64,000 nucleotides of DNA from Gemmatimonadaceae bacterium (GTDB lineage: Bacteria; Gemmatimonadota; Gemmatimonadetes; Gemmatimonadales; Gemmatimonadaceae): the NCBI GenBank assembly GCA_045803545.1, contig JBJMOW010000001.1, positions 1 through 64,000 of the forward strand. The letters are read 5' to 3'. This document shows positions 5,446-25,620 of this stretch, piece by piece (position 1 is the first letter of the stretch; each line of letters begins with the position of its first letter). A program made the translations under genes and the position numbers. The notes under the pieces were generated by a model. The model saw only the letters and a list, made by a program, of their open reading frames with translations. It was not told the origin of the DNA and did not search any database.

Positions 5446-5513
5446 ATTAGCAGCTTTGGTGATAGCAAAACGTCATTTGCATTCTCGATCTCTACGGACA
5501 CAAGGAGGTAGTT

Positions 5514-6227: not shown

Positions 6228-6248
6228 CGCGATGAGGCACATGAGCCT

Positions 6249-6280
6249 GGAAACGCCCGCGATTCGGGCGTTTTCCTTTT
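6249..6280 (+). terminator. Rho-independent terminator
   Basis: GGAAACGCCCG...CGGGCGTTTTCC hairpin followed by a T-run. Confidence 0.7.
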
Positions 6281-6294
6281 ATTGCAACTGACAA

Positions 6295-7197: not shown

Positions 7198-7198
7198 G

Positions 7199-7552
7199 TT
7201 AAATCGGCGGGATGGTCAGCCCGACGGTATCACCTGGCGCGACCGTAATTTCTTCGCTTACCGAAGCGCGAGTGCCACCAATCGGATCAGCAACAAATCG
7301 GAGCGGTGTCAGTCCGCTCACGATTCCCGCTGGAACGCGGAAGTTGCTCTTGCTGTTCCCGTTTGCGGTTCCCAGGCGAACACGTTCCGAGCTTCGCATG
7401 ACGTAGACAGCCATATCGAGAAAGCCTTGATTGTCCACTTGTACAACCGTCGGCTGATTCGGATCGATCGCGGTCGAGCCTTGCCTGAAACCCGTGCACG
7501 CCGCCGCGAGCAGCGCCGCCGAAACCGCGAGAACGCGGACTCTCATAATCAT
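7199..7552 (-). CDS. hypothetical lipoprotein
   Basis: Lipobox LAAAC after a hydrophobic signal; small beta-rich domain. Confidence 0.75.
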   Translation of the reverse strand: MIMRVRVLAVSAALLAAACTGFRQGSTAIDPNQPTVVQVDNQGFLDMAVYVMRSSERVRLGTANGNSKSNFRVPAGIVSGLTPLRFVADPIGGTRASVSEEITVAPGDTVGLTIPPI

Positions 7553-7622
7553 TCCTTCGTAGATCTGTTCAAGTCAAAAGCATACTGCGTTCCATACACC
7601 GAGAACGTAGTTTTGTTTTCTC

Positions 7623-8309
7623 ATGCTCAAGCCACTGATCATCGGCATCGCCGGCGGCTCGGGGTCCGGAAAATCGACAGTCGCCAGCAACGTCGCCGAG
7701 CTGCTCACGACCTCTTCCGTCGCGTTGATCGACATGGACGCCTATTACAAGAATTTCCCCGATTTGACGCTCGACGAGCGGCGCAAACTGAACTGGGATC
7801 ATCCTGATGCGTTCGATTACGATCTCTTGTGCCAGCATCTGGAGGCCCTGAGCCGGCGGCGTGCGATCGAGAAACCCGAATACGATTTCGTAACGCATCT
7901 CCGCCGCGCCCAAACGATTCGGATCGAGCCTGCTGATGTCGTCGTCATCGACGGCATCCTTCTCTTCGTCGACGATCGCGTCCGCGAGTTATGCGACGTC
8001 AAAGTGTTTGTCGACGCCGATGCCGACATCCGTCTCATTCGCCGCCTGCAGCGCGACACGCGAGACCGCGGACGCCCGCTCGACGGGATCATCGATCAGT
8101 ATCTCTCGACCGTACAACCGATGCACCTTCAATTCGTCGAGCCGAGCAAGCGATACGCAGATGTGATCGTGCCGCGCGGGGGTCACAACGCGATCGCGAT
8201 CGAAATGATCGTCGCTAAAATTCAGCGACGGCTGGCGAATGCAGTGTCTGGCGTCGAGGCGTTGCGTACACCATCAGCGCAGCGGCCAGCGCCCCGAATA
8301 CAAACATGA
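7623..8309 (+). CDS. udk: uridine kinase
   Basis: GIAGGSGSGKST P-loop, DAYY, NWDHPDAFD, FVEPSKRYAD, IVPRGG. Confidence 0.95.
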   Translation: MLKPLIIGIAGGSGSGKSTVASNVAELLTTSSVALIDMDAYYKNFPDLTLDERRKLNWDHPDAFDYDLLCQHLEALSRRRAIEKPEYDFVTHLRRAQTIRIEPADVVVIDGILLFVDDRVRELCDVKVFVDADADIRLIRRLQRDTRDRGRPLDGIIDQYLSTVQPMHLQFVEPSKRYADVIVPRGGHNAIAIEMIVAKIQRRLANAVSGVEALRTPSAQRPAPRIQT

Positions 8310-9471
8310 TCAGCCAAAGGGCCGTTGGTCCGAATACGGAGAGTATCTGGGTTCCAGCCCATGGCCCGAACGTAAGAGCGAGACTGAGCGACATACTGTA
8401 AGCTCCCATGTAGGCGCCGCGCTGTGCTGCCGGTGCGATGTCGCCGAGGTAAGCAGACATCGCCGGAAAAAGCATCATCTCACCGAAAGTCCACAGCACT
8501 ACCGTGACGAGAACGCCGGTTGCAGACGCAACGACGGCCAGTCCACCAAAGCCGAGCGCGAATAAAATGCATCCGGTGAGTAGCGGCCACGCCGCCGGCC
8601 AATGCGCAGTTCTCTGGTTAAGCGGTACCTCGAGCGCCACGATCAACAACGTGTTGATCGTAAACAGGGCGCCGTAAAATGCAGGCGAGAAACTGAGATT
8701 GTTCACCAGAAACAGCGACAGCGTCGATTCGTGCTGATAGAACACGACCGCGACGAGAAACTCGGCGAATAGGAATACGAGGAGCTTTCGGTTGCGCAAG
8801 ATGGCTTTGGTTTCGCCGTGATGTTTCTGCATCGGGTGATGGGTGCCGCCAGTTGGGGCGGTCCACCTCGTCAACATCAGAACCAGGGCTGCCAGGATGG
8901 TCGTTCCGCCGTCGACAACGAACATCGATTTGAACGAAACGGTGGCCAGGAATCCTCCTAGCGCGGGGCCGATGCTCATGCCGAGGTTGATCGCTAGACG
9001 ATTCACTGCATAAGCGGCCTTTCTCTGCTCGGAGCCGACGACGTGCGTAATCGCGGCGAGACTCGCCGGTCGAAACAACTCCGACGTGGCAGCCCAGATG
9101 AATGTCGTGAAGTAAACTCCGGCAACGGTTCGCGCGAGTGGGTACAAAAGTACGACGACGCCTGACAAGAGCAGTGACGCCCGCATGATCGGCAGAGCGC
9201 CGATCCGGTCGCTCAGCCATCCGGAAAATGGTCCGGCGCCGATCGCTGCGCCCCCATAGATGGCAAAGGCAAACCCAGCCTGCGCGGCGGTGAAATGGAG
9301 CTGTCGAGTGAGGTAAACCACGAGAAACGGCAACACCATCATGCCGGCGCGGTTCACGAGGTTGGTCGCAAACAGCAGCCAGACCTCACGTGGGAGTCCA
9401 CCGAGTCCCCGCCAGGGATTCAGGCGCGATTGCGCAAAGTTAAGCTGCCGCCGATTCTTCTCTTCTCGCAC
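8215..9471 (-). CDS. MFS transporter
   Basis: About 12 hydrophobic segments; motif A-like GWLSDRIG; INLGMSIGPALGG. Confidence 0.9.
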   Translation of the reverse strand: MREEKNRRQLNFAQSRLNPWRGLGGLPREVWLLFATNLVNRAGMMVLPFLVVYLTRQLHFTAAQAGFAFAIYGGAAIGAGPFSGWLSDRIGALPIMRASLLLSGVVVLLYPLARTVAGVYFTTFIWAATSELFRPASLAAITHVVGSEQRKAAYAVNRLAINLGMSIGPALGGFLATVSFKSMFVVDGGTTILAALVLMLTRWTAPTGGTHHPMQKHHGETKAILRNRKLLVFLFAEFLVAVVFYQHESTLSLFLVNNLSFSPAFYGALFTINTLLIVALEVPLNQRTAHWPAAWPLLTGCILFALGFGGLAVVASATGVLVTVVLWTFGEMMLFPAMSAYLGDIAPAAQRGAYMGAYSMSLSLALTFGPWAGTQILSVFGPTALWLIMFVFGALAAALMVYATPRRQTLHSPAVAEF

Positions 9472-9532: not shown

Positions 9533-12500
9533 TTGATCATCGAAAAACACAGACGATGTGGTATGCTCGCGCTCACGGCGTGCATTGCGTTCACCAGCTC
9601 GACGTGCCGCCAGGAGCACGCGTCTGTCGAAGAGCTGTACACAACGCGGATGCTCGGGCTCAGCTACTTGCAGCGAAATCAGCTGACCGAAGCAGAATCA
9701 TCGTTCAAGCAAATCACGAAGCTCGCCCCCGATGATCCACTCGGTTACGCGAACCTCGGCCTCACTTACCTCCAGGCAGGCCGATTCGATGACGCCGAGA
9801 AGCAGCTGAAAAAGGCCCGCGAACTGGACCCGAAGAACACCGAGATCGGACTCGCACTGGCCAAGGTCTACTCGCTGACAAAGCGACCGCAGGACGCGAG
9901 AGATCTCCTCGAGGCGATGCGAAAGGATTCGACCGCCAACCTGCACGTCGCCTATGCGCTCGCCGAGGTGGATGCACAGCAGCAGGACAGCGCGTCGGTG
10001 ACGCGCTACATGGATCGATTGAGAGATGTGCTGGCAGCGGCGCCGAGCAACCTGGCAGTGCGCACACAGTTGCTAAGAGCGCTCGCACAAACGGGCCAGG
10101 TCGACAGCGCGGTGCATCAGCTCGAGGAAATCCGCCGCATCCCGCCCGAGCTTCCCCGTGAAGCTCGGGTCTATCTGGATAGCACCATTCAGCTCTTACG
10201 CGCCGGCCAGGCAGCGAACGCGCGGGCGCTGTTGGATCGGTTTGTCCGCACGGTCGAAGTAACGTCGCCGTATCAGGCTTCGCTCGAAGACGTGAAATGG
10301 ACTGAAGGTCCAATCGCGGGCCGACCAGTACTGACCTTCGCGCCAAAGTATTTCGTGTCTCTCAATAAGGTTCGAGAAAAAGCAACCGTCGATCAGGCAA
10401 AGTTCGTTGATGCCACCGACGAATCCGGCCTGCGAAGCGGAGGCGGCCCTGCACAATCGGCGTTTGCTGTGGGTGACGTCGATGGAGATGGAATCGATGA
10501 CATTTTTGTCTCGAGTGTTTCAAACGGGCGCCCGGAGACACACCTCTATCGTGTTCAGGGCGGATTTGTCCGCGACGGCACCGATCGATCTGGAATTGCG
10601 CTCAGCGCCGGAGCCGCCTACGCAACGTTCGTCGATTACGACAACGATGGTTGGCTGGATCTATTTGTCATCGATGCGCGAGGCAAGGGCCTCCTTTTTC
10701 ACAATCGGGGCAACGGCTCGTTCGAGGATGTGACAGCGAAGGCCGGAGTTGGCCAAGTCAACGGTGCGCGCAAAGGAGTATTCGTCGATCTCGATCACGA
10801 CGGTGATCTCGATCTCCTGCTCGTTGGCGATAAGCTGACCGTGTATCGCAACAATCTTGACGGCACATTCACGGATGGCTCGGCGAGCTTTGACATTGCC
10901 GGAGTCTCTAATGCTTCCGACGCTGTTTTTGCGGATTTCGACGGCGATGGCAGAACAGACTTATTCGTGGCGAGCGCGGCCGGCGCTGGCAAACTTTTTC
11001 ACAATGCCGGTATTCAGCGTTTCACTGATGCGACGGGCCCTTCGGGATTAGCGCGAGCAGCTGCCGCGACGGTCGCCGCGGTGGGCGATTACAACAATGA
11101 TGGATATCTGGATCTCTTTTTGGGCGGCCACAATGTCGAGCCGTCACTCTGGCTCAACAAGGGCGATGGCACATTCACGCGCGACACGAGATCCGCGTCG
11201 ATATTGCGGGTGGCGCAGTCCGACGACGTCCAGGCAGCGACATTTGTCGATTTCGACAACGACGGTTGGCTCGACCTGGTGGTTGGCGCCAAGCCGGCCG
11301 CCGGGGAAAAAGGGCCGGCGCTGTTCGTGTTCCGCAACGATGGCAGCGGGCGGTATCTCGACCGATCGAATCTGCTCCCCGCGAGCGCACGCGAAGCGGG
11401 AGCAGTGGCGATATCGCCGTCCGACGTCGATGACGATGGCGATGTCGATCTTTGGCTGATTGATGGCGCGGGCGCCCCCCGTCTACTTCGAAACGATGGA
11501 GGTAACGCCAATCTCGCAGTGAACGTGGAGCTGAAAGCTTTGCGCACCGGCAGTGGAAAGAACAACGCACTCGGCATTGGATCTCGCCTGAACCTTCGCG
11601 CGGGCAATATCTACCAAACCCAGGTCGCCACCGGACGCGTCACACACTTCGGACTCGGTCCTCACCTCAAGGCAGATGTCTTACGGATCGAATGGCCGAA
11701 CGGTGTGCCACAGACGATCTACTTCCCCGGCAATGACCAGGACGTAGTGGAGCGTGAGATGCTCAAAGGATCGTGCGCGCTCGCCTACGCGTGGGATGGC
11801 AACGAATACCGCTTCGTCACCGACGCGATGTGGCGGAGCGCACTCGGTATGCCCCTCGGCCTGATGGGCGGTAACAGCGCCTTTGCGCCGGCGGGTGCAT
11901 CGCAGGAGTACGTGCGCATCTCCGGCGATGCACTCAAGCCGCGTGACGGCAAGTACTTTCTTCAGCTGACCGAGGAGCTCTGGGAGACGGCGTATGCTGA
12001 CGAAGTGAAGCTGGTCGCTGTAGATCACCCGGATTCAGTAGACGTCTTTGTAGATGAGCGGTTCGTGCCACCTGGACCGGTCACCCTCCATCTGTACGAG
12101 ATCTCGCAGCGGTATCCACCACTTTCGGCCACCGACGAGCGCGGCGATAACGTATTGCCTGCGCTTCTCAACGCCGACGACAACTACGTATCGAACTTCA
12201 ATCCGGAGAAGTATCAGGGCGCCGTGGCCAAACACGATTTGGTTCTCGATCTCGGCGCGACAGCAGGCCAGTCCGGTTCGTTCTTGTTCCTGCGCGGGTG
12301 GATCTACCCGACGGACGCCAGTATCAACGTCGCACTTTCTCAGCAGTCGTCGATTTCTCTCGCGCCCCCGTCGCTCGAAGTGCGTGATGCGAGAGGTGTC
12401 TGGAAGACAGTGATTCCCAGCATTGGATTCCCTTCCGGGAAAGACAAGACGATGGTGATCGACCTCGCCGGCAAGTTCCCCACTGCCGATCATCACGTTC

Positions 12501-13060
12501 GTCTGCGGACGAACATGCAGATCTATTGGGATCAAGCATTCGTTGGGCGGGCTCTCCCCCGTTCGGCGAGCCGCATCACCGAGCTCGAGCCAGCGTCGGC
12601 GGATCTGCATCTGCGTGGGTTCTCCAGGATGTACCGCAAAGGAGGACGCTACGGACCGTATTGGTTCGATTATTCGCAGGTGACCAAGGAGTCACCTTGG
12701 CGACCGATAGAAGGCTCGTTCACTCGTTTCGGAGATGTGCTTCCACTGCTACGCAAGGCCGACGACATGTACGTCATCATGGGTCCCGGTGATGAGGCCA
12801 CGCTCCAATTCGACGCCAGTTCAGCAACTCACCTGCCGGTCGGATGGAAGCGTGACTTTCTGCTTTACACCGACGGCTGGATCAAGGACTCGGATTTGAA
12901 TACCGCGTTCGGAACGACGGTCAACCCGCTGCCTTACCATAGCATCAAGTCGTACCCATACGCTGCAGGTGATGCGTATCCGACCGATTCGGTACATCAG
13001 CGCTACCAGCAAGAGTACAACACGCGAATGGTCGACAAGCGGTTGTCGACGGTGCGCTGA
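9533..13060 (+). CDS. TPR + FG-GAP repeat + ASPIC/UnbV domain protein with long C-terminal extension
   Basis: Signal-like N-terminus with Cys; TPR repeats (YANLGLTYLQAG); many D-x-D/N-x-D-G-x-x-D loops; HFGLG...IEWPNG ASPIC motif; GSCALAYAWDG-initiated C-terminal domain. Confidence 0.88.
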   Translation: MIIEKHRRCGMLALTACIAFTSSTCRQEHASVEELYTTRMLGLSYLQRNQLTEAESSFKQITKLAPDDPLGYANLGLTYLQAGRFDDAEKQLKKARELDPKNTEIGLALAKVYSLTKRPQDARDLLEAMRKDSTANLHVAYALAEVDAQQQDSASVTRYMDRLRDVLAAAPSNLAVRTQLLRALAQTGQVDSAVHQLEEIRRIPPELPREARVYLDSTIQLLRAGQAANARALLDRFVRTVEVTSPYQASLEDVKWTEGPIAGRPVLTFAPKYFVSLNKVREKATVDQAKFVDATDESGLRSGGGPAQSAFAVGDVDGDGIDDIFVSSVSNGRPETHLYRVQGGFVRDGTDRSGIALSAGAAYATFVDYDNDGWLDLFVIDARGKGLLFHNRGNGSFEDVTAKAGVGQVNGARKGVFVDLDHDGDLDLLLVGDKLTVYRNNLDGTFTDGSASFDIAGVSNASDAVFADFDGDGRTDLFVASAAGAGKLFHNAGIQRFTDATGPSGLARAAAATVAAVGDYNNDGYLDLFLGGHNVEPSLWLNKGDGTFTRDTRSASILRVAQSDDVQAATFVDFDNDGWLDLVVGAKPAAGEKGPALFVFRNDGSGRYLDRSNLLPASAREAGAVAISPSDVDDDGDVDLWLIDGAGAPRLLRNDGGNANLAVNVELKALRTGSGKNNALGIGSRLNLRAGNIYQTQVATGRVTHFGLGPHLKADVLRIEWPNGVPQTIYFPGNDQDVVEREMLKGSCALAYAWDGNEYRFVTDAMWRSALGMPLGLMGGNSAFAPAGASQEYVRISGDALKPRDGKYFLQLTEELWETAYADEVKLVAVDHPDSVDVFVDERFVPPGPVTLHLYEISQRYPPLSATDERGDNVLPALLNADDNYVSNFNPEKYQGAVAKHDLVLDLGATAGQSGSFLFLRGWIYPTDASINVALSQQSSISLAPPSLEVRDARGVWKTVIPSIGFPSGKDKTMVIDLAGKFPTADHHVRLRTNMQIYWDQAFVGRALPRSASRITELEPASADLHLRGFSRMYRKGGRYGPYWFDYSQVTKESPWRPIEGSFTRFGDVLPLLRKADDMYVIMGPGDEATLQFDASSATHLPVGWKRDFLLYTDGWIKDSDLNTAFGTTVNPLPYHSIKSYPYAAGDAYPTDSVHQRYQQEYNTRMVDKRLSTVR

Positions 13061-13077
13061 CCGCGCCTTATACTGTC

Positions 13078-14847
13078 GTGGTGACCCATCGTCCGAAGCC
13101 GGCGATACGCCGAGCTATCATCGCAATTCCCTTCCTCGCAGCGATTCTGTTGGCGATGAGATTGGATCGCGGTCCGATAAGATCCGCGACCGATGCTGGA
13201 CATCCAGGATTTGCATTGCGAGATGTTGCCGCGAACGCCGGCATCAGCTTCGTGCATCACCGACCTACCTTCGACGCGAAGATCGCCGGCATCGAGCCTC
13301 ATGTTGCCGCGCTCGGCGCGTCGGTCTCGGTCACCGACTTCGACGGCGACGGCCGTCCTGATCTCTACTTCACCAACAGCAAGTTCGGCGAACCCAACGG
13401 ACTTTATCGAAATCGTGGAGACGGCACCTTTGAGGAAGTCGCGTCGCGCGCCGGGGTTGCGGATCTGAATAGACCGGGCGAGGGCGTTTCGATGGGCGCG
13501 GTGTGGGGCGACTTCGACAACGATGGCCGAGAGGACTTGCTCGTCTACAGGTATGGCTATCTGGCGCTGTTCAAGAACCTCGACGGCACGCGCTTCGTCG
13601 ATGTCACGGAGCAAGCAGGCCTCCGCCGCTGGGTAAACAGCAACGGCGCGATCTGGATCGACTTCGATCGCGATGGACTGCTGGATCTGTATGTCACCGC
13701 CTATTTCCGCAGCGACATCGATCTCTGGCACCTCACTACCACCCGCATCATGCATAACAGCTTCGAGTTCGCCACCAACGGCGGCAAAAATCTGTTATTC
13801 CGCAACCTCGGCAACGGAAAATTCGAGGACGTCACCGACAAGATGGGGGTGGGGAGCACGCGCTGGACTCTCGCAGCTTCCTCGGCGGATTTCAACGGCG
13901 ACGGTTGGCCCGATATCTATCTCGCCAACGACTATGGACCGGAGGAACTGTACCTCAATGATCACGGCCACCGGTTCGTACTGACGACTGCAGGCCTGGA
14001 GAGCGAATCAAAGAGCGGAATGTCGGTAACTCTCGGGGACGCGTTCAACCGCGGGCGGATCGATGCATTCGTCACCAACATCTCTGAGCGCGGATATCTC
14101 TTTCAGAACAACAATCTGCGCGTCAACGAGATGGCAAGATCGAACGCGTTCCGGAATGTCGCCGAAGGCGCGGTGGCTGATGCGGGGTGGGCCTGGGGCG
14201 CACAGTTCGGGGATTTCAATAACGACGGCGCGAACGAGCTCTTCGTCGCTAACGGATTCATTTCTGCTGATCGCAACAAGAGCTACTGGTACGCAATGTC
14301 GAAGATCGCGGGGGCCAACAGCCGCTTGTTCGAAGATGCCGCCACGTGGCCTGCCTTCGGGAATGCGAGCCTTTCTGGATATGAGGCGTCGCGAGTCTAC
14401 CTCAATCGTGGAGTAGCTGGTTGGGTCGACGTCGCGAGCGAAGTGGGCGCGACTGATTTATATGACGGACGCGCCGTCGCGCTTGCCGATCTGTGGAATC
14501 GAGGCGAGGTAGACATCATCGTTGCAAACCAGAATCAACCAGCGGTCGTCTACCGTGATTCTCCCGACAGCAGCAACCACTGGATCGCATTCAAGTTGAT
14601 TGGAACGCGCAGCAACCGCAGCGCAATCGGAGCCGAGCTGTTGCTGGAGGCGGGAGACTTAACGCAGCGTCGAGTTGTCGACGGCGGTTCAGGCTTCGCC
14701 AGCCAGAATGATCGTCGCCTCCATTTCGGACTTGGCAAACACGAGTGGGTCGATCGGGTGGTAATCAACTGGCCGTCAGGACAACAACAGATTTTGCAAC
14801 GGCCGCCCATCGATCGCTTCAACACCATTGTCGAACCGCAACGGTAA
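13078..14847 (+). CDS. CRTAC1/UnbV-family protein (FG-GAP + ASPIC/UnbV)
   Basis: FG-GAP loops, DAGWAWGAQFGDFNNDG, NRSAIGA, GGSGFASQNDRRLHFGLG, INWPSG. Confidence 0.9.
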   Translation: MVTHRPKPAIRRAIIAIPFLAAILLAMRLDRGPIRSATDAGHPGFALRDVAANAGISFVHHRPTFDAKIAGIEPHVAALGASVSVTDFDGDGRPDLYFTNSKFGEPNGLYRNRGDGTFEEVASRAGVADLNRPGEGVSMGAVWGDFDNDGREDLLVYRYGYLALFKNLDGTRFVDVTEQAGLRRWVNSNGAIWIDFDRDGLLDLYVTAYFRSDIDLWHLTTTRIMHNSFEFATNGGKNLLFRNLGNGKFEDVTDKMGVGSTRWTLAASSADFNGDGWPDIYLANDYGPEELYLNDHGHRFVLTTAGLESESKSGMSVTLGDAFNRGRIDAFVTNISERGYLFQNNNLRVNEMARSNAFRNVAEGAVADAGWAWGAQFGDFNNDGANELFVANGFISADRNKSYWYAMSKIAGANSRLFEDAATWPAFGNASLSGYEASRVYLNRGVAGWVDVASEVGATDLYDGRAVALADLWNRGEVDIIVANQNQPAVVYRDSPDSSNHWIAFKLIGTRSNRSAIGAELLLEAGDLTQRRVVDGGSGFASQNDRRLHFGLGKHEWVDRVVINWPSGQQQILQRPPIDRFNTIVEPQR

Positions 14848-14851
14848 CTCG

Positions 14852-15754
14852 ATGAGCGAAGCAACCGCCAGCGTCGCATCGCAGAACGCGGTGGTCCGCA
14901 CCTGGCAGCGCGCGTCGAAGATCGATCCGCGGTATTTGATCGCGTTTCTCATCACGCTCGTACTCGTCGTGGGCCAACTGCGCTACCACCTGCTCGGCGG
15001 CTATGACCGGCTCGTCATTGCCCTCGGTGTGTGCATGGCGACAGAAGCGCTGCTGTCATGGTTCGATCGAGGAAAGGTCGTCAATCTGCTCAGCGCCTAC
15101 ATCAGCGGCATCAGCCTCACGCTTTTGATCAAGCCGCAGGGCGGCGCATTGTGGCCGTTCGTAATCGGTGGTTTCATCGCCATCGCATCGAAGTACGTCC
15201 TTCGCTACCGCGAGAGCCATCTCTGGAATCCCACCAATTTCGCGATCGCCGCACTGCTGTTGGCGGCGCCTGATCGCATTTCAGTCTTGAGTCATCAGTT
15301 CGGCAACGACGTCACAACCAATCTGGTGATATGGATTTTCGGCTTGATCATCGCCGCGCGCGTTGGGGTGCTGCACATCACGTTGACCTATGTGATCAGC
15401 TTCCTGCTGCTGAATACCGCCAGAGCGACGCTGCTTGGGCAACCCGTAGTTCCCGAGATCGCCCCAATCACCGGGCCGATGTACCAGCTATTCGTGTTCT
15501 TCATGATCACCGACCCACGCACGGTCGTGCGAGGGCGCAGGAAACAAATCGTCGTGGCCGTTCTGATCGCTGTTGCAGAAACGGTGATACGATTTGCGGC
15601 TGACGAGGGATGGTCACTGCCAATTGGAGTAACTGCCGCGCCTGCGTTTTATGCGCTGGCCACCATCGGCCCAATCGCAAAGTGGCTCGATCTGCGGCGC
15701 GCGAAAAAAGCAACAACGACGGAAGCCTTCACCGCCGCGCGAAGCCAGTTATAG
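14852..15754 (+). CDS. UnbU-like / RnfD-NqrB-family integral membrane protein
   Basis: SAYISG, SKYVLR, HLWNPTNF, FFMITDPRT motifs; ~9 TM segments; directly after the UnbV homolog. Confidence 0.8.
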   Translation: MSEATASVASQNAVVRTWQRASKIDPRYLIAFLITLVLVVGQLRYHLLGGYDRLVIALGVCMATEALLSWFDRGKVVNLLSAYISGISLTLLIKPQGGALWPFVIGGFIAIASKYVLRYRESHLWNPTNFAIAALLLAAPDRISVLSHQFGNDVTTNLVIWIFGLIIAARVGVLHITLTYVISFLLLNTARATLLGQPVVPEIAPITGPMYQLFVFFMITDPRTVVRGRRKQIVVAVLIAVAETVIRFAADEGWSLPIGVTAAPAFYALATIGPIAKWLDLRRAKKATTTEAFTAARSQL

Positions 15755-15758
15755 ATCT

Positions 15759-15774
15759 CCCTTCTTAAGAAGGG
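15759..15774. terminator. palindrome between convergent operons, possible terminator hairpin
   Basis: Perfect palindrome CCCTTCTTAAGAAGGG in the 33-bp gap; no strong U-tract. Confidence 0.4.
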
Positions 15775-15787
15775 TCTTGCCACACGG

Positions 15788-16384
15788 TCAGGCTGCAGCG
15801 GCGATGGACGGGCGATGGTGCGCGCAGGTGCACATCATCTTCACGGCGTCCCGTGCCGGCGGATACACGTGATAGTACATGGCGATCACCATCGGAATGA
15901 AGACGATGGTGTTGTAGAACAAGTGGAGCTCGATGCGCGGAAACCAGATCTGGCCGACGCTCGTTGGTACGTTGCCGCCGAACCAGTAGTGATGGGTGTT
16001 CGCCTGGTAGAACAGGATGAAGTGCTCGAAATGGTGCCAGAACTGGATCCAGAACGACGCCATCCACCACTTGTGCGATGTGCCGACGAATCCTTTGCGG
16101 AGGATCCAAAGGCCGACGAGCATCACCAGGGCGAAGCCGTAGTGTAGCGTTTCAGTCTTCATCAACCACGGATAGTACATACCGAGCAAACCCATCGACA
16201 TCTGGCGCGACCAGTGGAGGCCGTAGAACTGGTAAGCCTGGATGATGTGCTCGGCCCAATGGAGCAGCACGATGACCATTAACCCCTGCAACGCGAGCTT
16301 GTGGTAGCGAGTGTTCAGACTCTCGACAAACCCGGACGATAGGGCGCTTGAAAGTGGATGGATGTCGGGTGTCGTTGCGGTCAT
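15788..16384 (-). CDS. His-rich integral membrane hypothetical protein
   Basis: About 4 TM helices with HWAEH, ETLHYG, WHHFEH, IELHLFYN; C-terminal CTCAHH; start just after the halogenase stop. Confidence 0.8.
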   Translation of the reverse strand: MTATTPDIHPLSSALSSGFVESLNTRYHKLALQGLMVIVLLHWAEHIIQAYQFYGLHWSRQMSMGLLGMYYPWLMKTETLHYGFALVMLVGLWILRKGFVGTSHKWWMASFWIQFWHHFEHFILFYQANTHHYWFGGNVPTSVGQIWFPRIELHLFYNTIVFIPMVIAMYYHVYPPARDAVKMMCTCAHHRPSIAAAA

Positions 16385-16394
16385 GCGCCAGACT

Positions 16395-18059
16395 CTAAAG
16401 TTGGGTTTTCGGTGCGCCAACTATGCGGTCAGGGGTGGCGGTCGTCAAGCTGAAAATCGCCTCGGCTAAGGGCGAACCCCGAAGCGCCGGCAAGGCCGCC
16501 AGCAGCTCATGACGCGACATCCCGAGCAGCGTGTGCGCATCGAGCAACGCATCGAAATCAACCGGATAGAGATTTTGGTATTTCGGATCTCCAAGTCCAG
16601 CCACGTTGCGTGGCTTGATCGACCGATGGACCCATTCAACAAATCCACGGCGGGCATCCTGTGCCCCCATTGGCTTCCCTTGCGCAAGAATGTGCTCGAG
16701 CCGTCGCAGCGATTCCCGGGGCAACGGCTCGAGCACCGGATCGCCAACACCCAGGAAGCCGCGCCACGCGATCGAGTCATCAGGCTGTAATCGCTGACTC
16801 GCTTCGGCGAAGGATACAGCTGCGAAGTAAAGCATCGCCTGCGCGCTGAAAAGATCGAAACTCGCCATCGCCCGATAAGCGCCGGCAACCAGCAGGTCGA
16901 TCTGATCGCCTTCGGCCAAAAGCGCAGCCGAGTACCGATCGCGGGTTGATGGCGAAGGAACGCGCGAGCCAGATGCGACTGCCTCGAACATCAGTGCGAT
17001 ACGTTCGACGACGCGCAAGCTCCAGGATATTCCTGTCGAGAACAATGGATCGACGAAGGCAAATGCGTGCGGCATCAACAGCCATCGGTCTCCGGAGGAT
17101 TGCGCGAGACGATGCTGAATGAGCGGCCGAAACGCGATTGGCATCGAGGGTTTCGCATCAGAGAACAGGTCACCGATGGTTGGATAGCGGGCAAGCAACG
17201 TCTGCCAAAACGCTTCACCGCTTACGGACGTGCCACTCGGCAAGGAGCCCACGATCTGCGGATTGAGCAGGAATCCAGCGCTAGTTGTGCCGTGATCAAA
17301 CCGGAGGGAGTACATCCAGCCTTCGTCGATCACGTGATGGACTGCGGCCCAATCTTCAGGATATGGTCCCACAGGCAAACCAGGCACAGAGTCCTGCATC
17401 AGGCTTACGCCATCGAAATGGCTGAACACGAGCGCGGCACGAGTGTGAGTACGCGCCAGATCGGAAGCCAGCGAGAGCTGGCGGGCGAGAAAACCGCCGG
17501 GTCCCGAAGCGTCGATGACAAACGAAACGTCGAACTGCACGACTTCACCGAGCCGCGTTCCACCAAGCGTCGCATGGTTACGGGAGAACGAAGCAGAGTT
17601 TAGATCGACGTGGTCGAAGTAATCGACGCCTGCGGCAACAGCTTGATCGACAAAATGTTGATCGACGTCAGCGCGAAACCAATGTGAATCGGCGATGGCG
17701 TCGCCGGGACTGGCAGCGACCAGCAGTCGCTCCGAATCAGGCCCGCGATCCTCGAAGCGTTGGCCGGGATGATGGCGGTAGAAGGTGAAGCCGCGTTTCA
17801 AGCCGCGGCGCAGCTGCGGGAATCGCTTAACCCAGCGCCCATGTGCTGCCAGCGCATAACAGTCTTCGAGACCGTAGCGCAGACCGATTCTCTCCAGAGA
17901 AAGGTTGGCTAGGGGCGTGGATGATTCTCCGATTGCAAAACGTGGATGCATCCCACGCTCGAGAAGGACGACGTCGTAGCCAATGCTGGTAAGAATTCGC
18001 GCCAGCAGAGAGCCGGCAAAGCCGCTGCCGACAATGGCTATTTCATACCTGGACTTCAC
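16395..18059 (-). CDS. flavin-dependent halogenase-like FAD oxidoreductase (Trp-halogenase superfamily)
   Basis: GSGFAG Rossmann motif, HPRFAIGES, GLKRGF, IDASG, GWMYSL, AFVDPLFSTG; GTG start overlaps the radical SAM stop (GTGA). Confidence 0.82.
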   Translation of the reverse strand: MKSRYEIAIVGSGFAGSLLARILTSIGYDVVLLERGMHPRFAIGESSTPLANLSLERIGLRYGLEDCYALAAHGRWVKRFPQLRRGLKRGFTFYRHHPGQRFEDRGPDSERLLVAASPGDAIADSHWFRADVDQHFVDQAVAAGVDYFDHVDLNSASFSRNHATLGGTRLGEVVQFDVSFVIDASGPGGFLARQLSLASDLARTHTRAALVFSHFDGVSLMQDSVPGLPVGPYPEDWAAVHHVIDEGWMYSLRFDHGTTSAGFLLNPQIVGSLPSGTSVSGEAFWQTLLARYPTIGDLFSDAKPSMPIAFRPLIQHRLAQSSGDRWLLMPHAFAFVDPLFSTGISWSLRVVERIALMFEAVASGSRVPSPSTRDRYSAALLAEGDQIDLLVAGAYRAMASFDLFSAQAMLYFAAVSFAEASQRLQPDDSIAWRGFLGVGDPVLEPLPRESLRRLEHILAQGKPMGAQDARRGFVEWVHRSIKPRNVAGLGDPKYQNLYPVDFDALLDAHTLLGMSRHELLAALPALRGSPLAEAIFSLTTATPDRIVGAPKTQL

Positions 18060-19003
18060 AATTGACCGCACGCCTGACAAGGCGGACCGGACTCCAGCAC
18101 CCCACTGAGATTTGCGGCGCGCAGTCGCTTGACGCGGGCTACTCTGCACTCATCACAAGCGTCCAGCTGCGCAATGTCCCACAGGTCCGCTGTGACGACG
18201 GTTTTGGATTGGCTGATCGTCGCTTTCATCGCTTCTTCAAGCTGACGCAATGTCGGTGGCGTGAAGAATCCAAGCTGCTGCAGGCGCTCGAGCTCTCCGT
18301 TTCCTGGGCGCACCGGGATAATGGAGACCATTGAAGCGCCCGCCGACGCAGCGTACTCCACTGTGCGCACAGTCCACTCAACGCTCTCCGATGTCGGAAC
18401 GTACGGCATACCGAGCAGCACGAACACGCGCACGTCTATTTCATGCGCGTTGAGAAGCGTTACTGCGTGATCGAACCTAGCCAAATCCAATCGCTTGTTA
18501 CTTTCGGCCAGCGCAACCGGGTGAATCGACTCCAATCCAAGTGCGACCTCCAAACGGCCAGGGATCGAATCAGCGAAATCTGTGGCGCGTTGACCAATCG
18601 TCGCGGCATGCGATTCAACGGTGATCGCCTCAATTCCGCTGAGCAGGCTGGCGATGCCTGCTACGTCAGCGGGCGGCACAGCCCGCGGATCGAAGAAGTT
18701 GCTGGCGTTGTAAAGCTTCACGCGATTCGGCATCGGTCCTTCGCGCGAAGCGAGCACTTGCTCCAGCTGCGCCGTCAGCGCGCCGCTGGGGGTCGGACCG
18801 TCGATGGTCCACTGCCACAAATCGCAGAATGAACAGGCGAACGGACATTCTGCGCCGACAAGAAAGACGGTGAGTGACTGCTCGATCCTTCCGTCAGGGC
18901 GTCGCTCTTTCTCCAACAGCGTCCCGTGCGCACGGTGAGGATCGACGCGCGCCTTGGGCGGACGAAGGCTCCTGATACGGTTATCAGCCGTCTCCAGATT
19001 CAC
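18056..19003 (-). CDS. radical SAM protein, archaeosine RaSEA-like
   Basis: CPFACSFC (CxxxCxxC), KLYNASNFFD, TVESH, LEVALGLES, C-terminal CDEC and CQAC; family assignment from motif recall. Confidence 0.8.
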   Translation of the reverse strand: MNLETADNRIRSLRPPKARVDPHRAHGTLLEKERRPDGRIEQSLTVFLVGAECPFACSFCDLWQWTIDGPTPSGALTAQLEQVLASREGPMPNRVKLYNASNFFDPRAVPPADVAGIASLLSGIEAITVESHAATIGQRATDFADSIPGRLEVALGLESIHPVALAESNKRLDLARFDHAVTLLNAHEIDVRVFVLLGMPYVPTSESVEWTVRTVEYAASAGASMVSIIPVRPGNGELERLQQLGFFTPPTLRQLEEAMKATISQSKTVVTADLWDIAQLDACDECRVARVKRLRAANLSGVLESGPPCQACGQL

Positions 19004-20334
19004 GCTACGACGGCGTGGAGCCCCTGAAAATGACGCCGGTAACGGGTCTCGTTCTCCGGAAAGAATCGCGAGATCTTGTCCGCCGCTACGGAGCCGTGTT
19101 GGAAGCGACGCTTCTCGTACACCGGCATATCAATACCGAGTACTGCTCGAATGCCGCGCTTCACCACTTCTCCCTTGAGCGCATACAGGCGCTCGTGCGA
19201 TCCCTGTGTCAGCTCGGCGAAAGGAATTGCCTCGGCGACTGCAATCACGGCCGGCCTCGTGTAGGGGCTGAAATCAGTGAAGCCGAATTCACGAGCGCAC
19301 GCATAGCCACGTACGCAGCCGCGGCTGTAGCCACCGGAGTAAGTGAGCGAGTGCTTGATCGACTCGACTCCCCAGCCTTCCTGATAGAGCATCCGGTTGT
19401 TGACGACACTGCGGATGGTGAGCTCGCTGTTAGCCTCGATCGGGTAGTCTTTCAGATTCTCGTCACCGCCATCTCCGTCGACGAGCAGCTTCCAGTCGGG
19501 ATAGCGCTCCCTGATGCACGCGAGAAGAGCGAGATTCACGGCAGCGCAGTCGACATCTAACGGCTTGTAGTCTTCGATGACTGCGATCGCTCGCAAGGGA
19601 TCGAGCGCGGTGGACGGGACCTCCACCACTTCGCCCAGCATCTCGAGATCGGTTCGACGAAGAAACTCACGGGCCTGCGTGGCATCGTCTCCCTCGCCGT
19701 CGATCGAAAGAGTGAATGCCTTGAGGCGCGCCGGGGACTGTCCCTCATCCAACATCGCTCTGTAGAGACAGAGCAGGACCGACCCGCTATCGATCCCACC
19801 GGAGAACGGGACACCGATTGGAGCCGACCTGTCCTGAACCTGGAGCCAGCGGCGAATCTCGGAGTAAAGCGCTTCGATGTAGCGCTTGCCAATGACGTCG
19901 AGATCGGCGGGGAGAATTCCGCGCGGGGGATCGAAGAAGCGGCGATAGACGGGATTTGGATCTGGGCAGCCGACTAACCGCAACGTAGTGATATGGTGAG
20001 CGGGGACCATTCGCGTATAAGAAGGATGAAACTGATCTCCCCACCCCCGACGGGCGAGCTCCGCAGCAATTTCGTCGATTCGTTCCGCAACAATTAGCGC
20101 CGGCCCTTCTACTGCCTTCGCCAGAAAGTAACGCAGGGGTCGATCGAGACTGCGAGCCAGGAGAACACGCTCGCCGTCCTGAACCACTAAAGCGAAGGAG
20201 CCATCGATCTCAAGAACGCCATCGGCATCACTAGCGAGCAACCGGCGCCTCGCCTCAGATTCGTCGATCGTCCAGAATCGCTGTGATCTCTCAGATATCA
20301 GGTTGATGACGCGAGATAAATGTTGTTGGGTCAT
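19000..20334 (-). CDS. asparagine-synthetase-like ATP pyrophosphatase (amide ligase) lacking the glutaminase Cys
   Basis: PP-loop FSGGIDS, GDGGDENL, degenerate Ntn-like N-terminus (DGSFALV) without N-terminal Cys; AGGGAG upstream of ATG 20334; GTGA overlap with next gene. Confidence 0.85.
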   Translation of the reverse strand: MTQQHLSRVINLISERSQRFWTIDESEARRRLLASDADGVLEIDGSFALVVQDGERVLLARSLDRPLRYFLAKAVEGPALIVAERIDEIAAELARRGWGDQFHPSYTRMVPAHHITTLRLVGCPDPNPVYRRFFDPPRGILPADLDVIGKRYIEALYSEIRRWLQVQDRSAPIGVPFSGGIDSGSVLLCLYRAMLDEGQSPARLKAFTLSIDGEGDDATQAREFLRRTDLEMLGEVVEVPSTALDPLRAIAVIEDYKPLDVDCAAVNLALLACIRERYPDWKLLVDGDGGDENLKDYPIEANSELTIRSVVNNRMLYQEGWGVESIKHSLTYSGGYSRGCVRGYACAREFGFTDFSPYTRPAVIAVAEAIPFAELTQGSHERLYALKGEVVKRGIRAVLGIDMPVYEKRRFQHGSVAADKISRFFPENETRYRRHFQGLHAVVA

Positions 20335-23300
20335 GCCAAAAAATACTCCCTGGTCATGTCTGCTGCATCTTCGCAGGCAGCTCTTGTTTCCTGCTACCCT
20401 GCTGCTGATCGCCGGGTGTTCTCGCTCATCGGAGCCCACTGTCTTCAGGCTGCTAACGCCGAGCGAAACAGGCATCGACTTCGCGAACACCATTACCGCG
20501 ACTGATTCGTTCAACGTTCAAACCGACGTCTACATCTACAATGGCGCCGGGGTCGCCGTCGGAGACATCGACAACGACGGGCTGCCCGACATTTTCTTCA
20601 GCGGCAACATGGTTTCGAGCCGGCTGTACCTGAACAAAGGCTCGATGAAGTTCGCGGACATCACCAAATCGGCCGGCGTTGCGACGACGCGCTGGGCGAC
20701 CGGCGCCAGCATGGTCGATATCAACGGCGATGGCCTGCTCGACATCTACGTGTCGGTCTCCGGTCCTGAGCGCTTGAGAGCAGCGGACAGGGCGAACCTT
20801 CTCTTCGTCAACAACGGCAATCACACTTTTACCGAGGAGGCCGCCAGATACGGCATCGCAGACACAGGATTCACAACGCATGCGGCATTTCTGGACTACG
20901 ATCGTGACGGGTGTCTCGACCTTTTCGTACTGAACAACTCTCCGAGGGATTTCACGCGCGGGGTAGCGAGCCACCCCACCGCAGTCCGCGATTCGACGCC
21001 GGGAAGCGTGAATCAGCTCTATCACAACGATTGTCCTGAGGGGAAGCCGGGACATTTCACGAATGTCTCAGCGGATGCCGGGATTCTTCACGACGCAGGG
21101 TACGGACTAGGCGTGGCCATTGGCGACGTTAATGGAGATGGCTGGCCGGACATCTATGTATCGAACGACGGAATGCCCAACGATGTCCTCTATCTGAACA
21201 ATCGCAACGGCACATTCACCAATATCGCGGCGAAATCATTTAGGCACACGAGTCAGGCCGGAATGGGCGTTGACATCGCCGATTTCAACAACGATGGGCG
21301 CGAAGACATTCTGCAGGTGGATATGTTGCCGGGCGATCTGCCGCGCCGAAAGAGAACGAACGGAACCACAACGATGAGCAGCGCTACTGACGCGTTGCGC
21401 CGGGGGTACCGGATTGATTACTCGCAAAACGCTTTACAGCTGAACAACGGCACAACGACGGATGGGCTGCCCGTGTTCAGCGAGATTAGCCGCATGGCCG
21501 GCGTATCCGGCACCGACTGGAGTTGGAGCGCCTTGTTCGCCGATTTCGACAACGATGGATACAAGGACATCTTCATCGGCAACGGCTACCCCAAAGCGGT
21601 CAACGACCTCGACTACATGGCCCCGGCGTACAGTGCAATGCGGAGCGGAAATAACGCGCTCGCACGACGGATGATCAGAGAACTTCCAGAGTACGCATTT
21701 CCGAATTACGTCTTTCGTAACAACGGGGATCTCACGTTTACAAATAAGACCAAGCTCTGGGGAATGGATCAGCCGAGCCTCTCCTATGGTGCTGCGTACG
21801 CCGATCTTAACAACGACGGCAAACTCGATTTAGTCGTCAACAACATCAACGGACCAGCATTCGTCTACGAGAACGTGCTACCAACGAGCGACGCGGACCA
21901 CTACCTCGAACTCGGATTGAAGGGCGATTCCCCGAGACTGCTCACCGCCGGCATTGGAGCACAGGTCATCGTGACGACGGCGGGTAGAAAACAATATCTC
22001 TACAGCTCGCCATACCGCGGCTTCATGTCGTCGATGGACAGTCGACTTCACATCGGACTCGGCAAGGCCACTCGCGTCGATACGCTCGAAGTCGATTGGC
22101 CCGATGGGCGGCGACAGCTTCTAACCAATGTTCCCGCGGACCGACTGCTGGTAGTGAGGCAGGCCGGTGTGAAGCCCGCCGAAATTCCTCCAGCTGTCAA
22201 AAATCCAGCTGCCGTGGCCAAGTGGTTTGAAGAAGTTCGGCTGCCTGGTCTCGCCTACACACAACCCGCGGCGTTTCGATCTGACTTTACGATTCAGCCA
22301 TTGCTTCCCTACATGATCTCCGCCCATGGGCCGGCCCTCGCCGCCGGAGACGTAAATGGCGATGGCCTGGACGACATTTACATCGGCGGTAGTCCGGGCG
22401 TCGCCGGGAGACTGTTCATCCAGCAAAAGAACGGCGGCTTCATTGAGTCGGCGCAAGGCCAGCCATGGGAAGCCGACAAAGCGTTTGACGATTGGTGCGC
22501 GGTCTTCTTCGACGCGAACGGAGATGGTAAACCCGACCTTTACGTGGCGAGTGGCAACTACAGCCAGGCTAATGGCTCACCATTACTGCAGGATCGCCTT
22601 TACATCAATCAAGGCGGTGGCCGGTTTGTTCGGAGTTCCAACGCGCTCCCGCCAATGTTAACGAGCAAAGGAGTCGTGCGCGTCGGCGATTACAATGGCG
22701 ACGGGCGTCCGGATTTGTTTGTGGGTGGCCGGTTGACGCCGCGCAAGTATCCGTATCCGACGCGCAGCTACATCCTTCGCAATGACGGTGGCGGCCGATT
22801 CACCGACGTCACGGAGCAGCTCGCGCCGATGCTGTTGAATCCCGGCGGCATGATCACTGACGCCGCCTGGGTCGATTTCGATGGAGACGGGCGGCTGGAC
22901 CTGGTGACAGTCGGCGAGTGGATGCCGATTCAGTTCATGAAGAACGAAGTCAATCGCTTTTCAGATGTCACTTCGTCGACCGGTCTCTCTTCCGATCGGG
23001 GGTGGTGGTTCAGCATCGCCACCGGCGATTTCGACGGCGACGGCCGTCCTGACATCGTCGCCGGCAATCTCGGTTTGAACTACACGTACGGGACATCGAA
23101 GGATACAACTTTTGAAGTCTACGCAAACAGCTTCACCGGCAATCAGACGACAGACGTCGTGCTCGCAGACAGAATCAATGGCACTTCGTACTCTCTCGCC
23201 GGCATGTCACCGCTCGGACGCGACGTTTACACAACGGGAATAAGATTCCCAACCTTTGGCTCATACGCCGTGGCAACCCTGAATCAGCTGTTCGGTCAAG

Positions 23301-23710
23301 AACAGTTAAAACAGTCGCTGCATTATGAGGTTGATACGTTTGCCAGCGTATTCCTGCACAACGATGGTGGTGGAAAGTTCACCATGACGAAGCTGCCGAG
23401 CGCGGCGCAGATCTCACCGATCAAAGGCATTGTCGCGCGCGACATCGACGGCGATGGTCACCTCGATCTCGTGGTCGCCGGCAACTTGTACGAGACGGAG
23501 CCGAATACTCCGCGAGCTGACGCAAGCAACGGCCTGTGGCTGAGAGGTGACGGCAAAGGCCGCTTCTTAGCGATTTCCTCTGTCGAGAGCGGCTTTCTGG
23601 CGCCTCGCGATGCATGGGGGCTGTCGCTGCTGGGAACCCCTGAGGGTGAAATGATTGTCGTGCCGAACGTGGCGGATTCTCTACAGATCTTCCGACTTCG
23701 CAGACGCTGA
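20333..23710 (+). CDS. FG-GAP/VCBS repeat + ASPIC/UnbV lipoprotein
   Basis: Lipobox LIAGC; YNGAGVAVGDIDNDG; TDWSWSALFADFDNDG; RGFMSS...LHIGLG...VDWPDG; second FG-GAP propeller; start uncertain. Confidence 0.88.
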   Translation: MPKNTPWSCLLHLRRQLLFPATLLLIAGCSRSSEPTVFRLLTPSETGIDFANTITATDSFNVQTDVYIYNGAGVAVGDIDNDGLPDIFFSGNMVSSRLYLNKGSMKFADITKSAGVATTRWATGASMVDINGDGLLDIYVSVSGPERLRAADRANLLFVNNGNHTFTEEAARYGIADTGFTTHAAFLDYDRDGCLDLFVLNNSPRDFTRGVASHPTAVRDSTPGSVNQLYHNDCPEGKPGHFTNVSADAGILHDAGYGLGVAIGDVNGDGWPDIYVSNDGMPNDVLYLNNRNGTFTNIAAKSFRHTSQAGMGVDIADFNNDGREDILQVDMLPGDLPRRKRTNGTTTMSSATDALRRGYRIDYSQNALQLNNGTTTDGLPVFSEISRMAGVSGTDWSWSALFADFDNDGYKDIFIGNGYPKAVNDLDYMAPAYSAMRSGNNALARRMIRELPEYAFPNYVFRNNGDLTFTNKTKLWGMDQPSLSYGAAYADLNNDGKLDLVVNNINGPAFVYENVLPTSDADHYLELGLKGDSPRLLTAGIGAQVIVTTAGRKQYLYSSPYRGFMSSMDSRLHIGLGKATRVDTLEVDWPDGRRQLLTNVPADRLLVVRQAGVKPAEIPPAVKNPAAVAKWFEEVRLPGLAYTQPAAFRSDFTIQPLLPYMISAHGPALAAGDVNGDGLDDIYIGGSPGVAGRLFIQQKNGGFIESAQGQPWEADKAFDDWCAVFFDANGDGKPDLYVASGNYSQANGSPLLQDRLYINQGGGRFVRSSNALPPMLTSKGVVRVGDYNGDGRPDLFVGGRLTPRKYPYPTRSYILRNDGGGRFTDVTEQLAPMLLNPGGMITDAAWVDFDGDGRLDLVTVGEWMPIQFMKNEVNRFSDVTSSTGLSSDRGWWFSIATGDFDGDGRPDIVAGNLGLNYTYGTSKDTTFEVYANSFTGNQTTDVVLADRINGTSYSLAGMSPLGRDVYTTGIRFPTFGSYAVATLNQLFGQEQLKQSLHYEVDTFASVFLHNDGGGKFTMTKLPSAAQISPIKGIVARDIDGDGHLDLVVAGNLYETEPNTPRADASNGLWLRGDGKGRFLAISSVESGFLAPRDAWGLSLLGTPEGEMIVVPNVADSLQIFRLRRR

Positions 23711-25604: not shown

Positions 25605-25620
25605 CCTTGTGTGAGCTGCG

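Follow-up and report, generated by a model that had tools for sequence, protein, structure and literature searches.

The window analyzed here is a stretch of 64,000 nucleotides from a Gemmatimonadaceae bacterium (assembly GCA_045803545.1, contig JBJMOW010000001.1, positions 1 to 64,000 of the forward strand). Within it we studied the genes at 9533–23710, which encode an AsnB-like ligase, a radical S-adenosylmethionine (SAM) enzyme, a halogenase-like flavoenzyme, and a set of membrane proteins and exported lipoproteins. The ligase and the radical SAM enzyme, usually with the flavoenzyme, are a conserved core, and their tightest partner is a TPR–FG-GAP–UnbV lipoprotein with an orphan C-terminal domain that we call domain X. 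The genes are laid out as follows.

9533–13060, plus strand: TPR–FG-GAP propeller–UnbV–orphan C-domain lipoprotein, Trp767/Trp817 subtype (Pfam, co-occurrence)
11765–13060, plus strand: orphan C-terminal domain X of that lipoprotein, residues 745–1175 (no Pfam match)
13078–14847, plus strand: membrane-anchored CRTAC1/UnbV propeller, homologue of enediyne E4 (Pfam; accessory)
14828–15754, plus strand: UnbU/RnfD-like multi-pass membrane protein, homologue of enediyne E5 (PF03116; accessory)
15788–16384, minus strand: His-rich membrane protein (alignment; accessory, separately mobile)
16395–18059, minus strand: PltM/CtcP-clade flavin-dependent halogenase-like enzyme (Lys87 equivalent invariant, WxWxIP degenerate)
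18056–19003, minus strand: RaSEA-like radical SAM enzyme (CxxxCxxC and two C-terminal CxxC; core)
19000–20334, minus strand: glutaminase-less ATP-dependent amide ligase of the AsnB/beta-lactam-synthetase fold (core)

A first-pass annotation, made from the letters alone, had described eight open reading frames, all of which were verified in the sequence at their positions. Its account of the layout also stands: the minus-strand genes form an operon with two GTGA stop/start overlaps, a 33-bp gap (15755–15787) separates them from the convergent plus-strand operon, a major facilitator superfamily (MFS) transporter gene is divergent (8215–9471), and a third FG-GAP/UnbV lipoprotein gene (20333–23710, plus strand) abuts the ligase gene. 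A short hairpin lies inside the 33-bp gap. The CATG at 20332–20335 holds the start codons of both the ligase and the third FG-GAP lipoprotein, so that there is no space for promoters between them; the true start of the latter may lie downstream. The ligase start is the ATG at 20334, with a GGGAG ribosome site upstream. This junction is spanned by no listed contig of the sequencing runs, and relatives have the same arrangement. The runs with matches are soil metagenomes, and the lone RNA run among them, in which contigs matched over a small share, is uninformative on expression. A promoter and terminator scan returned fewer sites than in shuffled sequence. The closest named homologues are from Gemmatimonadaceae, and the bacterium's own genome is 93% complete.

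Co-occurrence of the core with one lipoprotein subtype

Relatives of the radical SAM enzyme occur in at least 589 stretches of species genomes, and the best 80 of these make up our locus set (36 Gemmatimonadota, 29 Acidobacteriota, 9 Planctomycetota, 4 Bacteroidota and 2 other), with neighbourhoods of up to 10 kb on contigs many of which are shorter. The ligase is present in 71 of the 80 loci and the flavoenzyme in 73, followed by the TPR–FG-GAP lipoprotein (18), UnbU (15) and the His-rich protein (5). Nine loci have no ligase; seven of their genomes were searched, and all seven carry it elsewhere. In three Planctomyces (G056, G058 and G074) the ligase gene lies outside the operon and adjoins the TPR–FG-GAP lipoprotein gene, and among 27 radical-SAM-negative Acidobacteriota that carry domain X the ligase was found in none. 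Across 78 genomes searched, the flavoenzyme orthologue is confined to those that are core-positive; it was not found in the core genomes G069, G072, G075, G091 and G195. Within a single genus the system is patchy (11 of 24 genomes).

The expectation that the enzyme trio would recur with the UnbV, UnbU and TPR–FG-GAP genes elsewhere was borne out, as all six genes form one cluster in Acidobacteriota (G175 and G107) and Bacteroidota (L087 and G436), and we found no match to a characterised cluster. The eight-gene unit that had been proposed gives way to a nested arrangement. Its MFS gene has a homologue in 0 of the 80 loci and is incidental, and we rejected the unit that includes it. The order of attachment is instead the Trp-type lipoprotein first, then the ligase and radical SAM enzyme, then the flavoenzyme, and then UnbV/UnbU.

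The lipoprotein that stands closest to the core is 1175 residues long with a probable start at 9563, and its homologues have lipobox-type N-termini. Domain X accounts for 430 of these residues, and its predicted model (predicted local distance difference test, pLDDT, 73.5) contains beta-sandwiches, one of them a CBM32/35-like jelly-roll. A structure search (Foldseek, VIA) returned generic beta-sandwich matches with a best Z of 9.6 and no clear homologue, with residues outside 91–266 barely tested, and the ESM Atlas returned only hypothetical clusters. By column counts Ser747-Cys748 is invariant, and Lys745, Trp767, Trp817, Gln895 and Pro926 mark the subtype, with Lys745 variable in Planctomycetota. 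Positions 767/817/895/926 switch jointly between W/W/Q/P, G/R/x/W and G/E/K/Y, as expected of residues that set the specificity of a pocket. Placed in a tree, 84 X domains split mostly by core status, with low support (0.36) for the deep split. Separately, three stand-alone proteins of 500–540 residues (L176, L177 and L178) have a distant domain-X-like start and come from genomes both with and without the core.

Of 40 genomes to which radical SAM loci had led us, 39 have domain X. In a sample of 40 Gemmatimonadales, the radical SAM gene was found in 13 and domain X in 13, with both in 12 and neither in 26 when one weak X match (G034) is scored negative. A control draw of 121 Acidobacteriota held 9 core-positive genomes, from which G090, a distant match without the ligase, is excluded, and 45 with domain X, including 9 of the 9 core-positive ones; domain X alone is therefore commoner than the core. 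All 45 were typed: each of the 9 core-positive carriers has the W817 form, against 3 of the 36 that are core-negative (G103, one of the nine, and G128, one of the 36, are unpublished genomes). Five core-positive genomes (G041, G045, G046, G085 and G175) carry both subtype forms, which indicates that the marker follows the paralogue and not the host lineage alone.

A 92-position profile of the marker region, which contains the two centre genomes and some relatives, was then run on two fresh draws. Of 231 Planctomycetota, 9 have the ligase and 93 domain X. Typing covered the 30 best-scoring of the 93, leaving 63 lower-scoring genomes untyped, and placed W767 in all 9 genomes that have the ligase and in 3 of the 21 that do not; those three exceptions were still negative on re-search. 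One planctomycete, G413, combines W767 with R817. The 301 Bacteroidota include 17 with the ligase and 19 with domain X, which is present in all 17 that are ligase-positive, and the six lipoproteins that we read all carry the LKGSCP and ELWE motifs. Core and X genes in this phylum often lie on distant parts of closed chromosomes, and the link holds with the genes megabases apart in the closed genomes G047, G054, G465, G432 and G613. The core–subtype pattern is thus repeated in four phyla, and the core is very probably linked in function to the Trp767/Trp817 lipoprotein subtype.

The enzymes, the accessory module and neighbouring genes

The ligase is 444 residues long, begins MTQQHL and is 52–79% identical across phyla. 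It matches Asn_synthase (E 1.8e-9) and scores 32 bits against asparagine synthetase B (TIGR01536), for which the cut-off is 267. Searched as sequence against the PDB it gave nothing useful. Its confident predicted model (pLDDT 87.8) resembles beta-lactam synthetase, ASNS/AsnB and CarA along its entire length (Foldseek E 4e-14; template-modelling score, TM, 0.62) at 12–19% identity, and shows the two-domain fold of AsnB and beta-lactam synthetase with a PP-loop adenylation site. The PP-loop SGGIDS and the GxGxDE motif (GDGGDE) are kept; an N-terminal cysteine that could serve as a glutaminase nucleophile is found neither in this protein nor in the family consensus. No RNA-binding domain was found on it by Pfam or in the model, and a search for the ligase on plasmids had no match. 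A complex prediction with the radical SAM enzyme scored 0.00 and is not used as evidence.

The radical SAM enzyme carries the CxxxCxxC motif, with C53, C57 and C60 invariant in 39 sequences. All 71 aligned homologues match RaSEA as their lowest-E family, and 26 also match MnmL/YtqA; a profile search of the PDB gave nothing useful. As the enzyme family matches fall far below curated cut-offs, the family names given earlier are resemblances only. An ArcS-like neighbour does not recur in the 80 loci, although the genomes themselves were not searched for ArcS. Two side cases concern this enzyme. At L180:7375-9928 in G090, a distant RaSEA-like enzyme is followed in the operon by an ATP-grasp gene with no AsnB-like ligase before it, a single case, and at L289 (G222:C23:5369-6157) a RaSEA-like domain lies within a 708-residue open frame, a possible fusion, in a planctomycete without the ligase.

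The flavoenzyme matches Trp_halogenase (E 3.8e-7), and its best PDB relatives are PltM and CtcP (E 1e-76). It contains GxGxxG and a lysine, present in 40 of 40 homologues, that aligns with PltM Lys87, which PMC6424973 reports as essential. The WxWxIP motif of flavin-dependent halogenases, as defined in PMC12645471, is replaced by WMYSLRF. The earlier label of halogenase therefore stands for the catalytic lysine and falls short for WxWxIP; judged by its sequence, the enzyme is likely, though not proven, to be a halogenase. Its scores against the maturases of tryptophylquinone proteins are all under cut-off (QhpG 59.9 of 240 bits, LodB 24.5 of 400, GoxB 31.6 of 400). At L042:3125-3343, nine further Gemmatimonadota loci and G000 C2:870552, a 72-residue open reading frame with about six I-x-x-N-Q heptads directly follows the flavoenzyme; it is not in the window. 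We take these heptads to be the pattern of anion-binding trimeric coiled coils.

The accessory membrane module resembles genes of the enediyne clusters. The CRTAC1/UnbV protein is the best match of SgcE4 in its own genome (30% over 539 residues), and the UnbU-like protein matches NQR2_RnfD (E 2.3e-10) and is 26–31% identical to SgcE5 and the UnbU of S. clavuligerus (26% to SgcE5). UnbU had been counted as part of the system, but close orthologues are restricted to 14 of 40 Gemmatimonadales (12 of them core-positive), 3 of 121 Acidobacteriota and 3 of 40 other core-positive genomes, and only 3 of the 9 core-positive Acidobacteriota have one. The His-rich protein, likewise included at first, is found in just the 5 loci given above. 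Its two HxxEH motifs, together with another two conserved histidines, are a candidate di-metal or haem site, and it is 51% identical to an open reading frame beside sgcE1-E5 of C-1027. From 14 records matched, 6 Streptomyces plasmids were examined, and all 6 have a homologue (about 50%) beside or within an enediyne cluster; another homologue, on a cyanobacterial plasmid, has no enediyne context. The ESM Atlas gave hypothetical clusters, with a DUF6008 lead on 12% of one cluster. A second copy (78%) at G000 C2:872555 sits in L027 (G000 C2:870552-873146) with the heptad open reading frame, a PadR-like regulator and an outer-membrane barrel gene, so the accessory module also exists apart from the cluster.

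Searches for the rest of an enediyne pathway were negative. E2, E3 (DUF1702), E10 and PKSE had no full-length match by tblastn in the 93%-complete genome, and the enediyne polyketide synthase (PKS) of C-1027 gave local matches only, of at most 309 residues at about 30% identity. A PF08012 search was empty, as were its positive controls. The family-library scan took in 2242–29819 of the window, and genes for nonribosomal peptide synthetases or carrier proteins beyond these limits were not scanned in this way. As for a precursor of a ribosomally synthesized and post-translationally modified peptide, no small open reading frame is kept across phyla among those of at least 80 residues; shorter ones were not systematically surveyed. 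In relatives, the His-rich protein and UnbU genes flank an AhpD/CMD-like gene whose CxxC position (C-V-F-stop) holds an in-frame TGA in each of the five loci read in frame (L079:13610-14188, L078:13125-13706, L031:9639-10217, L043:15656-16240 and L033:5608-6185), and it probably encodes a selenoprotein; it was not found in the genome studied here.

Beyond the ligase lie two further features.

20333–23710, plus strand: long FG-GAP/UnbV lipoprotein associated with SusC/SusD (often adjacent but not required)
23775–28911, minus strand: SusD/SusC pair (found repeatedly beside the cluster in Gemmatimonadota and in some Bacteroidota)

The long FG-GAP lipoprotein had also been included in the system. 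Its gene sits with SusC/SusD in Gemmatimonadota and Bacteroidota, two paralogues lie behind another susC in the same genome, and it was not found in four core-positive genomes of other phyla, in a search whose positive control (G005) matched. Five core-negative genomes of the genus were searched as well, and it was found in none of them. The SusD/SusC pair is a possible uptake arm. Ordinary neighbours occupy 2242–8309 and 28935–29819 of the window, namely a Ser/Thr kinase with a long C-terminus, a YegS lipid kinase, a uridine kinase and a YdjC deacetylase upstream of susC.

Other loci show further arrangements. Transposase-like genes separate the ligase and radical SAM genes in one Thermoanaerobaculia genome (L084:5933-9798), and a pair made up of a membrane multihaem c554-type protein and TPR-UnbV stands beside the cluster in L131, L019, L052, L078, L086 and L104. 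In Bacteroidia/Bacteroidales (L165:1-495, L099 and L095) the genes for the lipoprotein, CRTAC1, the ligase and the radical SAM enzyme stand behind two ABC binding proteins, joined upstream in G075 by a di-haem peroxidase-like gene, as in hydrazine-synthase-like clusters. A link to such clusters (cf. PMC12758564) was considered and set aside: the di-haem peroxidase fragment and two ABC binding proteins come together in one Bacteroidia locus, and the arrangement is not general.

A proposed pathway and its alternatives

The lack of any signal or membrane segment in the enzymes, and their dependence on ATP, SAM or reduced flavin, place them in the cytoplasm; because their partner is exported, something must cross the membrane. 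We tentatively hypothesize that the core makes an amide-containing, optionally halogenated small molecule by an 'amine on, carbon off' chemistry like that of ArcS and RaSEA, and that the lipoprotein binds or uses it. In step 1 the ligase would, from its fold, adenylate the carboxylate of a small substrate with ATP and, having no glutaminase, would couple it to an organic amine, most likely of the lysine type; lysine itself as the nitrogen donor is a rather doubtful assignment, drawn from the archaeal analogy. In step 2 the radical SAM enzyme, by the same analogy, would remove a hydrogen next to the nitrogen and then cut the C–N bond or close a cross-link, with the amide nitrogen staying on the product. 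In an optional step 3 the flavoenzyme would halogenate or hydroxylate an electron-rich ring of the free molecule. In step 4 the product would exit the cytoplasm to become a ligand, cofactor or substrate of the Trp767/Trp817 lipoprotein. In some genomes the UnbV and UnbU module, often with the His-rich protein and AhpD-like peroxidases, may add a redox or halogen step. That a free small molecule is made at all comes close to an even call, and we favour it for four reasons: free rings are what the flavoenzyme clade acts on, the marker residues change in pocket-like sets, Lys745 is not fixed, and both tryptophans persist where the flavoenzyme is missing.

Several observations weigh against the pathway and the link on which it builds. 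The association holds in one direction: of the genomes with the Trp subtype, the core is missing from 3 of 12 in Acidobacteriota, 3 of 12 in Planctomycetota and 2 of 19 in Bacteroidota, and G001 carries domain X but no core. Among core-positive drafts, G076 and G021 are without domain X and G043 has another subtype only. Kinship among genomes inflates all the co-occurrence counts and overstates their independence. The radical SAM enzyme scores 58.5 bits against TIGR01210 (RaSEA), below the curated cut-off of 212 that three archaeal controls pass. WxWxIP is exact in 1 of 40 flavoenzymes, with the second Trp in 7 of 40, and the domain X model is partly of low confidence. No precursor-supply gene or transporter is conserved in the loci, one MFS family occurring in 5 of them only.

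Maturation of proteins into carriers of their own cofactors has precedents in QhpD/QhpG acting on QhpC and in LodB/GoxB. It is possible, if unlikely, that the enzymes here mature the lipoprotein before export, forming a cofactor or cross-link from Cys748, Trp767/Trp817 and Lys745. This would explain why one protein subtype tracks the enzymes, with Trp and Lys markers near an invariant Cys, and the flavoenzyme's weak NCBIfam matches to QhpG, GoxB and LodB are in line with it. However, Lys745 as a modification site is weakened by several core-positive Planctomycetota in which A, I, M, T or H takes its place, and both tryptophans are kept in the five core genomes named above in which the flavoenzyme was not found. 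The flavoenzyme is also far closer to PltM/CtcP than to QhpG (E 2e-16), and Trp767 alternates with an aromatic residue at 926, which is suggestive of packing.

AsnB-like enzymes that amidate peptidoglycan and lipopolysaccharide sugars exist, and we consider it improbable to a similar degree that the present enzymes amidate an envelope block (a sugar acid, a lipid or an imported glycan fragment) that the lipoprotein binds or transfers at the membrane. The CBM32/35-like sandwich in domain X (Z 8–9) and the Trp markers would suit such a role, as would the recurrent neighbours, which include SusC/SusD, the YdjC deacetylase, a glycosidase-like gene and sugar-utilisation genes, and in G721 the trio comes after a polysaccharide-synthesis cluster. 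Z values of 8–9 are common for such sandwiches, though, and a phenol-type halogenase fits poorly. Among neighbour families present in at least 3 of the 80 loci, named from sequence starts and partly from Pfam, there is no glycosyltransferase, flippase or nucleotide-sugar gene.

It is very unlikely that the genes share no function and are simply carried along by one mobile island or inherited together in related lineages. Many positives are relatives, and the absence of a match to the third FG-GAP gene in the core-negative genomes of the genus points to a larger island that comes and goes; yet the link survives megabase separation in closed genomes, across four phyla, and is specific to one subtype among paralogues of the same genome. 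A role in tRNA or nucleoside modification, with the ligase acting as ArcS/TilS and the radical enzyme as RaSEA, is likewise very unlikely. In its favour, RaSEA and MnmL/YtqA, which the radical SAM enzyme matches best in NCBIfam, are tRNA enzymes, the trio lies amid housekeeping genes in many Thermoanaerobaculia, and two Planctomyces (L064:9160-9882 and L098:1-351) have queC in divergent orientation to the radical SAM gene; but the system is patchy within a genus and tied to an exported lipoprotein subtype, with no RNA-binding domain on the ligase and no ArcS-like partner in the loci.

The system is real, widespread and previously undescribed, with a well-supported partner. Literature searches on the enzyme combination, UnbV/UnbU, TIGR01210 and bacterial CRTAC1/FG-GAP proteins, mostly without subscription papers, returned no description of it. 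The radical SAM subfamily, with its at least 589 stretches in species-level genomes, belongs to abundant, poorly cultured soil and aquatic phyla, and the pathway proposed here would, if true, be the first bacterial use of RaSEA-type chemistry. The Trp subtype signature, tested on fresh samples, and the enediyne-type accessory module are new here. The system gives a first handle on the common CRTAC1/UnbV propeller lipoproteins, since it defines a subtype and offers a candidate pocket as well as a pathway that would supply it. More speculatively, and with little probability at present, the ligase and RaSEA-like enzyme may build, and the flavoenzyme halogenate, the new cofactor of a widespread, so far unrecognised system that activates a family of exported FG-GAP/UnbV propeller lipoproteins as redox enzymes; the cofactor would be free or carved from Cys/Trp of the protein. 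Were this cofactor system true, the enediyne UnbV–UnbU–His-protein module would be a borrowed part of an older, PKS-free system.

Comparison with known systems

The closest chemical parallel is the ArcS–RaSEA pair of archaeosine synthesis in Euryarchaeota (TIGR01210), in which, according to PMC11298593, RaSEA turns an ArcS-made lysine adduct into archaeosine, and the ArcS of the species studied does not use ammonia, Asn or Gln. Both systems pair a nitrogen-transfer enzyme with a radical SAM enzyme of RaSEA type. The present pair is bacterial, however, and scores far under the family cut-off; its partner is an AsnB-fold ATP ligase in place of the TGT-fold ArcS, and its associates include an exported lipoprotein and a halogenase-like enzyme.

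The ligase shares with beta-lactam synthetase, CarA and AsnB the full-length fold (TM about 0.6), the PP-loop and GxGxDE, and, like beta-lactam synthetase and CarA, it has no glutaminase cysteine. It differs in its low identity to them, in being nearly always paired with a radical SAM enzyme, and, from beta-lactam synthetase, in having no clavam or carbapenem genes nearby. The flavoenzyme keeps the GxGxxG, catalytic Lys and FxDPxFSxG of PltM/CtcP, whereas its family mostly has WMYxL(R/P)F in place of WxWxIP and has neither a conserved flavin reductase neighbour nor a PKS product as substrate.

The accessory genes of the enediyne cassette (E3/UnbL, E4/UnbV, E5/UnbU, PKSE and E10) have reportedly been linked to iodination. 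In PMC9992847, three accessory genes of the cassette have no assigned function, and what E4 and E5 do in forming the enediyne core is listed as unknown. The present locus offers a PKS-free setting for work on the E4 and E5 homologues. Here the TPR–FG-GAP–X gene occupies the place of E3, no PKSE, E10 or DUF1702 was found, and the E4/E5 homologues are dispensable in most core genomes. In both settings, nevertheless, E4 and E5 homologues are direct neighbours and keep the same order, with a His-rich protein homologue and AhpD-like genes nearby.

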